Positions 3,713 to 8,324 of a stretch of DNA of 64,000 nt are shown piece after piece (position 1 is the first letter of the stretch; each line of letters opens with the position of its first letter). The notes below the pieces were generated by a model that worked only from the letters and a program-made list of their open reading frames with translations, searched no databases and was not told the origin of the DNA. The position numbers and the translations under genes are program-made. The stretch comes from Octopus vulgaris (lineage: Eukaryota): NCBI GenBank assembly GCA_951406725.2, contig OX597818.1, forward strand, positions 1,674,001 through 1,738,000, in the 5' to 3' direction.

Positions 3713-4336
3713 TATATGTGTACGTGTGTATGTATGTACGTACGTATGTATGATGTATGTATGTATGTATGTATGTATGTATGTATGTATGTATGTATGT
3801 ATGTATGTATGTATGTATTATGTATGTATGTACGTATGTCTCTTCAATTTTTTAATTATTATAAATCTTCCACTGAGGAGGGAGCCATTTTCCAACAAAA
3901 ATACAAGGCTCCATCTTTGGGATGTAGTTAACAAAGACAAATTCACTTTTGGAACTTGAGAAAAGTCTTGCATATTTTTACTGTTCCACTCACAGAATAG
4001 ACTTGTAATGTACGAATCAACCGGTCAATTTCTCTTTCTGAAAACCCCAGTTTATCCAGATTTTCTTTTAAGCATTTACTAACAAAACCTCTGCTCTAAT
4101 TATTATTGGTATGAATATGAATGCATAGTCTTGATATAGAAGCTGGAGGTTTCGAAGCAGTTGCCCACAGATATCCTCTTTTTCTTTGGTTTTCAAAGAG
4201 ATCTTTATATCTGCAGGGCAGCTAACTTCTATGATAGTACGTACCTTTGCTCCTCTGCCCCAAACAACAATATCTGGCCTACATTATTTACATTATTTAC
4301 AATTGACGGTTATTTTTCCTCATCTTGTTTGTTGTT

Positions 4337-4382
4337 AACACAACATTTCGGCTGATATACCCTCCAGCCTTCATCAGGTATC
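4337..4382 (-). ncRNA. Minimal type-I hammerhead ribozyme motif (family A)
   Basis: Minus strand: GAUAC-CUGAUGA-A-GGCUG-gagggUaUaU-CAGCC-GAAAUGUU-GUGUU. Conserved core, perfect 5-bp stem II, and a 5-bp stem I with wobbles. Confidence 0.7.
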
Positions 4383-4499
4383 TTGGGGAAATATCGAACC
4401 TGGGTTCTCATTCCTAAGGTATTTTTCGACGTTGTTATTATTATCATTATCATCATTATTATTATTATTATTATTATTATTATTATTATTATTATTATT

Positions 4500-5056
4500 G
4501 AGTGAGAGAGCAGTGCATGCTATCAAAGTGACACTGGGGTAAAATATACGAAGCCCAGCATACCCATCATGACTACCCGTCTAATAAGGGTACACCAGGC
4601 ACATGCATCACAACCATATGTGCGCAACATGGTGATCTCATATCAAGATAAAGAGCGGATGACCTTGCAGGTGGGGCCCAGTTAGAATTTTCTTCTGGTT
4701 GAGTAGCCCATCCCGCTCAAAAGATCCCTGAATAAGGATTGTTTAGGGATGTTGAACGAACCACACATGTTTCCAGAAATGAATTGTCCAAACCTCTAAG
4801 AATTCCTTTCAACAGATGGCTATCATGCTCCCCCACTACTTCGGCTTGTGATCAGAGATGCACATATCGTTAACCACTAAGGGACATGTTCAACTGGTTA
4901 AGGTCAAACAATTGACAAGCAAATCTGTGGCATTGAGCAGAATGTTTGCTGTAGCCTATATTTTATACCACGACAAAACAATGTACATGATAACACTTCC
5001 AATCAGTTAAGATCAGCAGCCATGAGAGCCACTGCCTGGTATTGCATCAGGACATT
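4500..5056. mobile_element. ~555-bp non-coding interspersed element nested in an (ATT)n tract
   Basis: Complex sequence with no ORF, bounded on both sides by (ATT)n, and absent from the mirror arm of the surrounding palindrome. Confidence 0.6.
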
Positions 5057-5165
5057 TATTATTATTATTATTATTATTATTATTATTATTATTATTATTA
5101 TTATTATTATTATTATTATTATTATTCAGGTCACTGCCTGGAATCGAACTACGCCATATGTCTAA

Positions 5166-5240
5166 GGGCACATGGCGTCGTGGTTAAGAGCGCGGGCTAC
5201 TAACTACAATATTCCGAGTTCTATTCCAGGTAGTGACCTG
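5166..5240 (+). promoter_or_regulatory. tRNA-derived head with Pol III A and B boxes
   Basis: A-box TGGCGTCGTGG (5173-5183) and B-box GAGTTCTATTCC (5216-5227; GAGTTCGATTCC-like in the inverted copy). GGGCAC/GTGACC acceptor-like ends. An internally deleted inverted copy lies at 5127-5162. Confidence 0.7.
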
Positions 5241-5430
5241 AATAATAATAATAATAATAATAATAATAATAATAATAATAATAATAATAATAATAATAAT
5301 TATAATAATAATAATAATAATAATAATAATAATAATAATAATAATAATAACAACAACAACAACAACAACAGCAACAACAGCAACAACAACATCGAAAAAT
5401 ACCTTAGGAATGAGAACCCATGTTTCCCAA

Positions 5431-5475
5431 GACAACTGATGAAGGCTGGAGTGTATATCAACCGAAACGTTGGTT
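5431..5475 (+). ncRNA. Minimal type-I hammerhead ribozyme motif (family A, second copy)
   Basis: CUGAUGA (5436-5442), stem II GGCUG/CAACC with one mismatch, GAAACGUU (5464-5471). Stem I is degraded. Confidence 0.6.
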
Positions 5476-8324
5476 AACAACAAAAAGATGAGGACAAATA
5501 TCCGTCAATTGTAAATAATGTACATAATTCCTCATCTCTTAAATATATAAATGTAATATCTGGCCTGTTATGCTTACATTAGTTTTGATGGGAATATTCC
5601 ACAAGTATTCCTTGAGTTGGTGTTTATGAAAGTATTCCATAGCAGAGGCATTTTCTAAGTTTATTTCAGGACAGTCTTTTCTGCGGATGGCATTGTAAAT
5701 TGTTTTAGCAACAACATCGTGCCCCATAGGAAGGTAGTACCGTGACGACATTTTAGAACAGCTGCTTATCACATGTCTTCCGCAGAAACATGACATAACC
5801 TACATATGCAAGAGCGTTTACAAGAGGTTTACAAGAGCGTCACTGTCTCTCTTGTTCACCAGATACTTTGTGGCAATCTCCTGTTCCTGGATTGCAAACG
5901 CATAGCTTTCAAAGTGTGAGGTGATGTATTGGTCTCGTGTTCAAGAGAGGCTGCATTTCGTGTCAACTCTACTGTCTTCTTCAAGTTTCCGGGCAACATA
6001 CCCATGCATAGTCTTTTTTCTTTTTTTGTATGCTGAGTGCTTTCCATCCAGTTCTTCTCTGAGGTAAGAGAGCCCAACTGTTTTGGGGCTGTATAGGAAA
6101 TCATCAGGAAGAGAATGATTCTTGAGGAGCTCATTGCCAGCTCGTACAATATTGCTCACTTCACTTTTCAGCACTGAATTTATATATATATTTTTGCTGA
6201 TGTTATTCAGCAGGTGGTGCCTGAGTGATACCATACGGCATTCGAAGGCCGTCTGCACTGATCTCAGGCCTCTACTACCTTCATTTCTTCTTAGATCCTG
6301 TCAACATCACTATTTCTGTGGAAGTTCCCAGTTATTGTAAAGATTTTGCGGATTTTGATATCTACAGACCAATCAAGTACCCCAAATGTTGGGATCAGCA
6401 CTGGTACTGTAAATGTATTGTGGAATATTGTTTTTTTGTAACAGGAGAGTTCCGATTGCCATATTTTCCTAAGTCTGGTGTAATATTCTCGGGTCACTCT
6501 ATCTTTATTCACAGTGCCTTTATATGATACATTTTCATATATGCCTAGGTACTTGTAACATTCTTTGTGTGGAATGGGGGAGATAAAGAGACCATTGATG
6601 CACAGGTTTTGGGTTTTGGGGACTGACTTTCCTCATTCTATAACCAAATATGAACATTTCTTCTGGCCAAATTTTATGCCTACATCAGCTGAAAATGTTA
6701 TTAATTCCAGTTGTTTGTTGGCATTGTTAACACTTTTAGCATAAATCTTCAGGTCGTCTACCAAGAAATTACATGGATATTTCTAGCAGTTGTAGATTCT
6801 AGCATGTAACCATTTGTTTCCTGCAGTAGGAACGATAATGAGCTCAGTGCCAAAATAAAAAGAAGTACAGAAAGACTATTTCCCTGGAATATTCCTTTTG
6901 AAATGCTTATAGTATCTGAAACAATTATTCTGTTCTCAGGTGGAAGGGTGAGAATTGTTATCCATGTCTTTGTGAGTGTCTCTTTGGCAGCAATTAAGGT
7001 GGTATGTACTTTTGCCAGGTGTAGGAACTTCAAAAGCCATGAATGAGGGATAGAGTCAAATGCCTTCCTATAGTCAAGCCATATGTCACAAGATTTCTAC
7101 GCTGTTTTCTTACTTCAGACAGTACAACTTTGTTTATTAAAAGTTGTTCGGCACATCCCCACACTCACTTCTTTCCACCAGCTTGTTCATCAGTCACAAT
7201 GTTGTTCGACTCACAATGGTCCCAGAGGAATTGGTTGAGGCAACTTGTGTACAGTTTGTACATAATGTTTAGGCAAGCGATAGGCCTGTAGTTTCCTGCC
7301 ATCTCAGTAATTTGATTTTTGACAACAAGATTTGTTCTTGCTGTTGCAAGCCAATTTGGTATATCAATCTGACCTTCCATAGTCCTTTTGAACATACATA
7401 TCAACTGGTTTCTATAAAAAGTCAGCTTCTTGTACCAATATCCAATTATCAGGTCCCTTCCAGATGCCTTCCCGTTCTGCAGTTTGCCTACTACTATAGC
7501 GAACGTTTCTGCATCGATTTTGTATTTTATTGTTAGTGTTGGTACAGTATCCTCTCAATTGTATTTAACCATGATGCATTCAGGTTGAAATCCCTCTTTT
7601 CGTTGCAAATTTTTGACCAGAATAATTGTAGATCTTCTTGGGAGGGAGCTTTCTTAATGGTAATGCTTTCCTTCTTCTGTATAATACTTATGGGTTCCAA
7701 CCCAAACTTGCGATTGATACTGGGTCGTTCAAAAATTCGCATGCGACAGCGGAGTTTCTTGCTCATCGTCCAGAGTTCATGTTTTAAAGGGATTAGCTTT
7801 CCCTCAAAAAGCTTGGTGTGAAGAGCTGCCATAAAGTTTCGTTAATTTTTGTCTAAGATAGAGTTGGTGAGGTGTAAACCCATTTTTCTCCTTTCTCCTT
7901 ATTGCTGTAATTAACCATCCAATATGGCGGCGCACGTTGTTGATGTTTCCTTCAAGATTTATTTTCCATCTAGGTTGCTTCCGTCTAGTAATTTCGTTAC
8001 TTTGTTCACTGTAGAGTTCTCCTAAGTGTTCTGGTGTTCTTTAAGAGTAATAGCGGCTGTGTATATAAAAGTATTTATATTCCAGTAATTAACTTTACAT
8101 GATTTCATGTGCTCTCTATGTATGTGTGTGTGTATATGTATGTATGTTTGTATGTATGTACGTATGTATGTATGTATGTATGGATGGATGGATGGATGGA
8201 TGGATGGATGGATGAATGGATAGGTGTTTATATATATATGTGTGTGTGTGTGTGTGTGTGTGTGTGTGTGGTTATATATACACATATATACATGTATATA
8301 CATGTGTATATACACACATACATA

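Follow-up and report, generated by a model that had tools for sequence, protein, structure and literature searches.

The window analyzed here, a 64-kb stretch of octopus DNA, carries a non-LTR element, which we take to be of the R4/Dong type, whose endonuclease frame is split by an insertion made up of tRNA-like heads, (AAT)n tracts and hammerhead-bearing tails. The question is whether this insertion represents a separate class of non-coding, SINE-like, Pol III-transcribed and ribozyme-processed elements, as proposed in a first-pass annotation made from sequence, or the end of a coding retrotransposon. Two observations behind that proposal were confirmed. The 12-bp target-site duplication (TSD), AATATCTGGCCT, is present at both edges of the insertion with no third occurrence in the 64-kb window, and the minus-strand frame HNRPDIVV...IIEVSCP, interrupted at RPDI, reopens once 4281-5566 is deleted. 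The segment 4281-5554, thought to have arrived as a single insertion, must instead reflect at least two events because a separate 556-bp repeat sits within the left (AAT)n.

Table 1. Features of the insertion and of its host element (window coordinates).
Feature	Position	Strand	Remarks
Host non-LTR element	4090..7850	-	RT fragments and endonuclease frame split at RPDI; limits approximate
Left TSD	4269..4280		12 bp
Left (short) arm, hammerhead tail	4281..4433	-	First ~43 codons of PLE ORF, ATG 4411
Left hammerhead core	4342..4377	-	Minimal type I; stems I and II intact, stem III palindrome altered to AUGU
Left pLTR (AAT)n, distal portion	4434..4499	-
Nested non-coding repeat	4500..5055		556 bp, other family, later insertion into (AAT)n
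Left pLTR (AAT)n, proximal portion	5056..5126	-
Left head remnant	5127..5163	-	Head positions ~52-75, B box intact
Right tRNA-derived head	5166..5240	+
Right head A box	5173..5183	+	One change from family consensus
Right head B box	5218..5226	+	One change from family consensus
Right pLTR 5' leader	5241..5387	+	(AAT)n(AAC)n
Right (long) arm, tail	5388..5554	+	First ~50 codons of PLE ORF
Right hammerhead core	5436..5471	+	Minimal; predicted cleavage after 5471; stems I and II disrupted here
Right TSD	5555..5566

The insertion had been described as two copies of one unit. This is true of the tails, which are inverted relative to each other and 86% alike, but the arms as a whole are asymmetric, the left one containing the nested repeat and lacking 38 nt of its head. 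On this side the head remnant consists of the ~52-75 segment and, joined to it across the 38-nt gap, 13 nt that copy the beginning of the head in fold-back orientation. The left tail ends in a doubled 9-nt unit without extension, whereas the right arm contains a ~30-nt "tail" extension of the kind found in Penelope-like elements (PLEs). A and B boxes, also claimed for the head, are intact in the family consensus and, for the B box, in the left arm, but both boxes of the right head fail the consensus motifs. The statement that the insertion has no ORF was mistaken as to origin: from the ATG at 5410 (plus strand) or 4411 (minus strand), the tail is the N-terminus of a PLE ORF, frameshifted in the right-hand copy. 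In our judgment the insertion is very probably a decayed inverted pair of 5'-truncated copies of a PLE pseudo-LTR (pLTR), later split by an unrelated repeat, from a parent likely transcribed by Pol III. As a locus, this is a truncated PLE insertion of an ordinary kind.

We are highly confident that head, (AAT)n and hammerhead tail together form the pLTR of an autonomous Penelope/Poseidon element of the same genome. The order in the parent unit is head, (AAT)n, ORF (RT then GIY-YIG), 28-nt UTR and again head. In loci chosen by an RT fragment alone, the tail lay downstream of the ORF in 19/30 and, inverted, upstream of it in 15/30; in loci chosen by the ORF N-terminus alone, the tail ran into the ORF in 19/30. 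Three loci (L166, L185 and L188) read from ORF end through pLTR into ORF start, the hammerhead-bearing partial tandem that generates a pLTR in Penelope/Poseidon. The reading frame leaving the tail is kept in 6 of 10 testable copies; at L173, 110 codons are open from the tail ATG, and this frame is 45% identical (E 2e-25) to the N-terminus of an intact relative (P0003). None of the copies fetched has an intact full-length ORF, the longest frame being 569 aa (L141). The latter matches RVT_1 just under the cut-off (E 2.7e-6) and contains VYSIPxSCGRLYKG, with two Cys between GIY and YIG; the Pfam GIY-YIG profile itself gives no match in this frame. By inspection, it lacks the CX2-5CxxC linker between RT and EN that is present in another, 781-aa family and, according to the accessible text of PMC8557442, in Neptune/Nematis. 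The L141 protein has 2989 homologues, no named reference proteins being among the matches, and its placement in Penelope/Poseidon rests on domain features. In repeats close to its 5' end, the element consensus contains two artefactual frameshifts. Neptune-like PLEs (Cys linker, TA-repeat ends, mostly young), the main yield of a Pfam GIY-YIG search of the genome, were rejected as partners: they are without the tail, the one match in 50 loci falling at a separate insertion in L072. The label Naiad was ruled out for these Cys-linker PLEs, the Naiad EN being N-terminal.

Mobilization by a PLE RT/GIY-YIG enzyme, suggested in the first-pass annotation, is supported. The comparison of the tail with autonomous PLE pLTRs, also suggested there, yielded a match, with the tail adjoining and entering the RT-GIY-YIG ORF. 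The separate non-coding class did not survive; because the unit belongs, as pLTR, to an autonomous PLE of the same genome, the outcome is in substance the one which the annotation itself had named as speaking against it. What the insertion holds instead are back-to-back end repeats of a retrotransposon of the Penelope type that is present in high copy number.

Head and tail proved to be linked genome-wide and to occur, with TSDs, in inverted pairs, 53 of 86 loci containing a head-to-head pair. TSDs of at least 8 nt flank 27 of these 53 pairs; for mismatched pairs of flanks the figure is 19 of 260. In 44/53 pairs a long end is combined with a short one, the two differing by ~25-34 nt, and in 0/53 with a second long one. 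Arms end at ORF nt ~120-130 and ~154, and a solo copy keeps ~154 nt of the ORF. Such inverted 5'-truncated copies, in which one end is long and the other short and only one side bears a 30-40 bp tail, are a published signature of PLEs, Poseidon included (PMC11167929 and the accessible text of PMC8557442).

The parent may be transcribed by Pol III. The family consensus head has intact A and B boxes in tRNA register (positions 8 and 53), and its best match among 32 tRNAs of the octopus is tRNA-Arg(TCG) (z 8.4). We prefer this comparison as support because a pattern of tRNA landmarks found in 0 of 200,000 shuffled heads was written after the head had been inspected. ARAGORN reported no tRNA in the 64-kb window and calls the head a tRNA only at a 70% threshold, with a poor fold; near related ORF stretches, no A/B box was found (0/61). 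The sense strand of the 2.7-kb unit contains no TTTT, versus 31 AAAA. Decayed copies have 0.31 TTTT per kb, whereas the value for 33 related ORFs with a similar T content is 2.93 per kb; 9 and 8 runs occur in two further PLE ORFs of this genome. A single ORF among 61 relatives (L259) is TTTT-free; it was rejected as a second case of the same association, its pLTR being T-rich and without a tRNA head. Base shuffles gave P 0.006 for the TTTT absence, which is weak when tested against shuffles in which the unit keeps its codons (P 0.05) or its dinucleotides (P 0.07). Finally, estimated arms number ~12,500 in the head but ~2,000 only 69 nt upstream, and 26/30 head-picked arms start between -26 and +8 (match rates were computed with a reference holding a 7-nt duplication upstream of the head; start positions were corrected). 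The tRNA-derived start of the pLTR, the TTTT-free 2.7-kb sense strand and the stop of most head-reaching arms at the head are unusual features. Together they suggest a coding retrotransposon likely to be transcribed by Pol III from its tRNA-derived head, a step to which we would give about an even chance. Pol III transcription, previously claimed for the short element, is plausible for the parent element instead.

It is also conceivable, with a likelihood somewhat below one half, that transcription of the same PLE is by Pol II or results from read-through, with the head being the relic of a captured tRNA-SINE and the copies being stopped by RT stalling or snap-back at a hairpin. This alternative contests the Pol III step alone, not the identity of the pLTR. 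A hairpin at the head can indeed cause arms to stop there: fold-back was seen in 10 of 30 head-picked arms, and 510 palindromic centers were counted versus 537 read-through centers. Yet 16 of the 26 arms that start between -26 and +8 have no fold-back pattern. Similarly, the marginal shuffle P values fit Pol II but have to be set against a TTTT frequency about ten times lower than in relatives and in the two other PLE ORFs of the genome. Where the ORF stops, some 35 nt ahead of the head, lies a TATA-like TTTATAA; both boxes, A and B, are in turn intact in the consensus. RNA-seq (three runs, related species) resembles passenger transcription, with both strands equal, discrete starts or ends absent and ~79% of reads running into unlike sequence. 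Our fuller scheme falls just short of an even chance: an autonomous Penelope/Poseidon element would have taken up a type 2 promoter, derived from tRNA-Arg, to serve as its pLTR, cleared Pol III terminators from its 2.5-kb ORF and produced uncapped Pol III RNA with an (AAU)n/(AAC)n leader, templating long copies as well as over ten thousand SINE-like arms, a LINE and SINE in one.

It seems improbable that the short pLTR copies make up a Pol III SINE in its own right, transcribed anew and mobilized in trans by the enzyme of the PLE. At the head there are indeed about six short arms for each ORF-linked one, solo copies appear to retain the internal promoter, and the accessible part of PMC6765202 offers a precedent in Schistosoma repeats combining Pol III promoter and hammerhead. 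Short and ORF-linked copies, however, share one common majority sequence and similar divergence (medians 4-6%), with non-CpG polymorphisms in every group; no short-copy-specific diagnostic variant was found between 89 short-copy and 80 ORF-picked loci, a small sample. With no subfamily variants peculiar to the short copies, there is no support for a SINE that propagates independently, and the non-autonomous SINE-like family of the first-pass annotation is not borne out either. Moreover, Poseidon_Ac requires the first 172 nt of its ORF in the template (PMC11167929), more than the ~154 nt kept here, although this requirement may not transfer. The parent PLE RNA, rather than a separate SINE, is likely to be the template of the short arms. 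As to a DNA transposon of the fold-back kind (MITE), its terminal inverted repeats being ~150 bp long, the inverted arms with TSD would fit, but the idea is wholly improbable and was ruled out by ORF linkage, the arms belonging to an RT-encoding element and having unequal ends, variable inner junctions and TSDs ranging from 6 to 14.

By analogy with Poseidon_Ac (PMC11167929), the PLE protein would nick both strands about 7-14 bp apart, and two cDNAs would be initiated at internal positions of the RNA (ORF nt ~120-130 and ~154); in Poseidon_Ac the first RT start is 111-118 nt into the ORF. Both cDNAs would extend toward the RNA 5' end and then join, often perhaps via snap-back at a small hairpin spanning the head start. 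Where priming took place in the 5' pLTR, synthesis would end by run-off at the head and leave ~300-nt SINE-like arms. The many short inverted copies provide genomic support for the two internal RT starts seen in vitro and reveal the junction of the two cDNAs, still an open point for PLEs.

The annotated minimal type I hammerhead agrees with the predicted fold of the family consensus (6-bp stem II, 5-bp stem I, palindromic ACGU stem III, CUGANGA/GAAA core). The same layout, with differing stem II sequences, recurs in 20 motifs from related loci, filtered for a stem II of at least 4 bp. The motif lies within the first codons of the PLE ORF. Unlike the consensus, both copies in the window are mutated: the right arm has the annotated GAAACGUU but broken stems I and II, and the left arm has intact stems I and II but reads GAAAUGUU. 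Rfam scans, among the checks proposed earlier, gave neither a tRNA nor a hammerhead match at 3500-6500, and further Rfam scans gave none. The epithet "ribozyme-processed" is unsupported because copies do not end at the predicted cleavage site but 50-85 nt downstream of it, and no reads pile up at the site in the three RNA-seq runs of the related species.

Among known systems, the octopus element resembles Penelope/Poseidon in combining RT with a C-terminal GIY-YIG without Cys linker, and Poseidon in a pLTR that overlaps the ORF start, with the hammerhead in the first codons (PMC11167929 and, in its accessible text, PMC8557442). Unlike Poseidon PLEs, it has a pLTR whose opening parts are an A/B-box head of tRNA origin and an (AAT)n leader, and its sense strand is free of TTTT. 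Long stem II, short stem I, extra post-core base and palindromic ACGU are shared with metazoan PLE minimal hammerheads (PMC4209133); the accessible portion of that paper also notes opposite-strand pairs 100-700 bp apart and describes no tRNA head, which the octopus unit has. Schistosoma Sm-alpha/Sj-alpha likewise unite a Pol III-type promoter and a hammerhead within one short repeat; as presented in the available part of PMC6765202, they are arranged in tandem and released by cleavage, and no ORF is mentioned, whereas the octopus unit is inverted, belongs to a coding PLE and ends away from the cleavage site. Animal non-LTR retrozymes are also short pLTR-related sequences with a type I hammerhead; in the excerpts available (PMC7229834; 10.64898/2026.07.22.740005) they form head-to-tail tandems giving circular RNA, an arrangement found neither in the window, where the units are head-to-head with a TSD, nor in the 53 of 86 loci, whose units are likewise head-to-head.

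If driven by Pol III, the parent would be a protein-coding eukaryotic retrotransposon using the tRNA polymerase, of which our literature search returned no case, and how its uncapped RNA gets translated would become a testable question. In such genomes, tRNA-headed short repeats annotated as SINEs can be PLE ends. The octopus OR1 and OR2 SINEs are tRNA-Arg-derived short repeats, and we presume that the short copies described here may be one or the other.

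The insert's repeated unit is the pseudo-LTR (pLTR) of an autonomous Penelope-type retrotransposon (PLE), and its tail is coding. PLEs retrieved with a Pfam GIY-YIG search were ruled out as partners of the unit because the tail is not common to them. A different reverse transcriptase (RT) fragment, adjoining one copy, gave 150 scored matches; in 30 fetched loci picked with it, the tail was found downstream of the ORF in 19 and, inverted, upstream of it in 15. On the 3' side, the order in the copies inspected is ORF stop, 28 nt, head. The tail is continuous with the ORF in 19 of 30 loci picked by walking to the ORF's 5' end. 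The frame starting at the tail ATG is open over 110 codons in one fetched locus (L173), is kept in 6 of 10 testable copies, and shows 45% identity (E 2e-25) to an intact relative (847 aa) at the N-terminus. Linkage to the ORF on both sides, together with the open tail frame, therefore identifies the unit as a pLTR whose tail is the start of the PLE ORF, and not as the separate non-coding element envisaged in the first-pass annotation.

The PLE protein has a C-terminal GIY-YIG-type region but no Cys linker, the layout described for Penelope/Poseidon elements (PMC8557442); this placement is made from domain features. All fetched copies have disrupted ORFs, with a longest frame of 569 aa in a set of 20, and their tails diverge 4-6% from the majority sequence. 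Relatives P0160-P0167, in the cluster of a protein 53% identical to the ORF (P0006), carry names that assign them to a barnacle, Amphibalanus amphitrite.

An independent SINE is not supported either, the sampled short copies showing no subfamily variants of their own. Head and tail majority sequences are identical in the ORF-picked and short-copy sets except at two sites, one in a 9-nt repeat and one at a microsatellite edge, and non-CpG polymorphisms are common to both sets. With a small sample, and with a few short neighbours among the ORF-picked loci, a minor subfamily may have been missed.

A tail search of the 2.8-Gb animal genome, whose repeats suggest an octopus, returned 3054 candidates, 40 of them scored. 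Exact matches numbered 1690 for a hammerhead 34-mer, 7895 for the tail start, 3681 for a word in the head, and 1029 and 664 for words 41 and 128 nt upstream of the head. Division by pooled match rates (9/175, 49/124, 31/105, 32/62 and 24/57, taken from loci not picked on the same word) gives rough estimates of ~33,000, ~20,000, ~12,500, ~2,000 and ~1,600 arms, respectively. Element sequence is also present in sequencing runs under six species labels. As anticipated, head and tail are linked elsewhere in inverted pairs with target-site duplications (TSDs): once 3 duplicates were removed from the 89 loci fetched, 53 of the remaining 86 hold a head-to-head pair. A TSD of at least 8 nt flanks 27 of the 53, whereas mismatched flank pairs give one in 19 of 260 cases. 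In 44 of the 53 pairs a long end (ORF nt ~154) faces a short one (~110-135), a proportion that is 24/31 in the two sets selected without use of the long arm; none of the 53 joins two long ends. Loci L217 and L220 seem to derive from a single insertion that was duplicated.

In the window, the 12-bp TSD was confirmed, with no other occurrence there, as was insertion into an endonuclease-type coding frame, which regains openness when the insert is removed. The host element is presumably R4/Dong; Pfam confirmed RT fragments only. The two arms are indeed inverted; they are not, however, clean copies of one unit, as a separate 556-bp repeat is nested in the left (AAT)n, 38 nt are missing from the left head, and a ~30-nt extension is confined to the right arm. 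Both hammerheads carry mutations, as do both the A and B boxes of the right head. The locus is very probably a truncated inverted PLE insertion, an architecture already known.

Features of the window and of related loci (window positions unless a locus is named)
Feature	Position	Strand	Remarks
TSD	4269-4280, 5555-5566		
Insert	4281-5554		
Left arm	4281-5163	-	
Right arm	5166-5554	+	
9-nt unit (example)	4281-4300		at short RT start
556-bp repeat	4500-5055		non-coding, longest frame 59 aa
Host element 3' region	~3930-6170		
Second copy of that region	~2790-3700		diverged, just upstream
Decayed PLE copy	13163-15341	-	54-58% protein identity to L061-L068 family
Other non-LTR element	41935-43522		fragments, with AP endonuclease
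Young PLE family, L061-L068 (example)	G000:C17:42761893-42771393		intact 781-aa ORF in many copies
Tandem array, L254	G000:C2:16238000-16239400		150-bp array built of ORF end, UTR and head start of tRNA-headed PLE
Eukaryotic SSU rRNA fragment, L022	396-966		adjoins element copy

Copies of the 556-bp repeat in fetched loci are mostly (ATT)n-flanked, often within the pLTR of the tRNA-headed PLE, and the repeat is likely a non-autonomous (AAT)n-targeting element, for which no partner was found. The 3' ends of other non-LTR elements lie directly in the pLTR (AAT)n at two loci (L006 and L025); the leader therefore acts as a landing site.

Published accounts describe PLE insertions that have an inverted 5'-truncated copy and, at one of the two ends, a tail of 30-40 bp (PMC8557442), and opposite-strand hammerhead pairs spaced 100-700 bp apart (PMC4209133). 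For Poseidon_Ac, one account places the ORF start in the hammerhead and an internal RT start 111-118 nt into the ORF, the tail lying between the two start sites, with both strands cut and extended and insertion not needing ribozyme cleavage (PMC11167929). By analogy, a similar insertion mechanism may be inferred for the tRNA-headed family. The element had been proposed to be ribozyme-processed; cleavage is predicted at ORF nt 70, well within both arm ends, so the ribozyme does not define the ends of inserted copies. The 9-nt unit is present in two to three copies at 12 of 43 short ends and in two copies at 5 of 33 long ends, possibly through reiterative copying by a telomerase-related RT.

The A and B boxes of the consensus head, at positions 8 and 53, are in tRNA register, and the unit has neither box elsewhere. 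Compared with 32 annotated tRNAs (34 matches, 33 fetched), it best matches tRNA-Arg(TCG) (z 8.4, ~46/73 bases); an 'Arg' origin is tentative because just seven isotypes were represented. The sense strand of the 2.7-kb consensus contains no TTTT and 31 AAAA, while two other PLE ORFs of the genome contain 9 and 8 TTTT. Of 80 related metagenome loci, the 61 with longer ORF matches (a partly redundant set) include one that is TTTT-free and none with an A/B box nearby; the TTTT rate averages 2.93/kb over 33 relatives of like T content versus 0.31/kb in decayed copies here. Against terminator purging, however, codon- or dinucleotide-preserving shuffles of the element give P of 0.05-0.07. Of the arms reaching the head, ~84% are lost within 69 nt, and a loss of ~20% follows across a further 87 nt. 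When loci were picked by the head, 26 of 30 arms began between -26 and +8 relative to the head start, and one extended to -62. A hairpin spanning the head start explains part of this step, given fold-back in 10 of the 30 arms and 510 palindromic versus 537 read-through centres. Three RNA-seq runs of a related species, of a library type poor for Pol III RNAs, gave reads on both strands, mostly from passenger transcripts, and no discrete RNA starts or ends. The chances that the coding PLE is transcribed by Pol III are about evenly balanced.

No tRNA-headed or Pol III-driven PLE is described in the literature compared, mostly by title but with text from 10.64898/2026.07.22.740005, PMC13282606, PMC7229834 and PMC8967140; passages elsewhere mention short non-autonomous Penelope elements (PMC6685494) and Schistosoma repeats combining Pol III and hammerhead features (PMC6765202). 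The family may already be catalogued in Repbase or Dfam; what sets it apart is the tRNA-derived pLTR head. The young L061-L068 family has a second upstream frame, TA-repeat ends, and a pLTR in which a non-canonical hammerhead-like motif accompanies CCAAT/TATA-like repeats.
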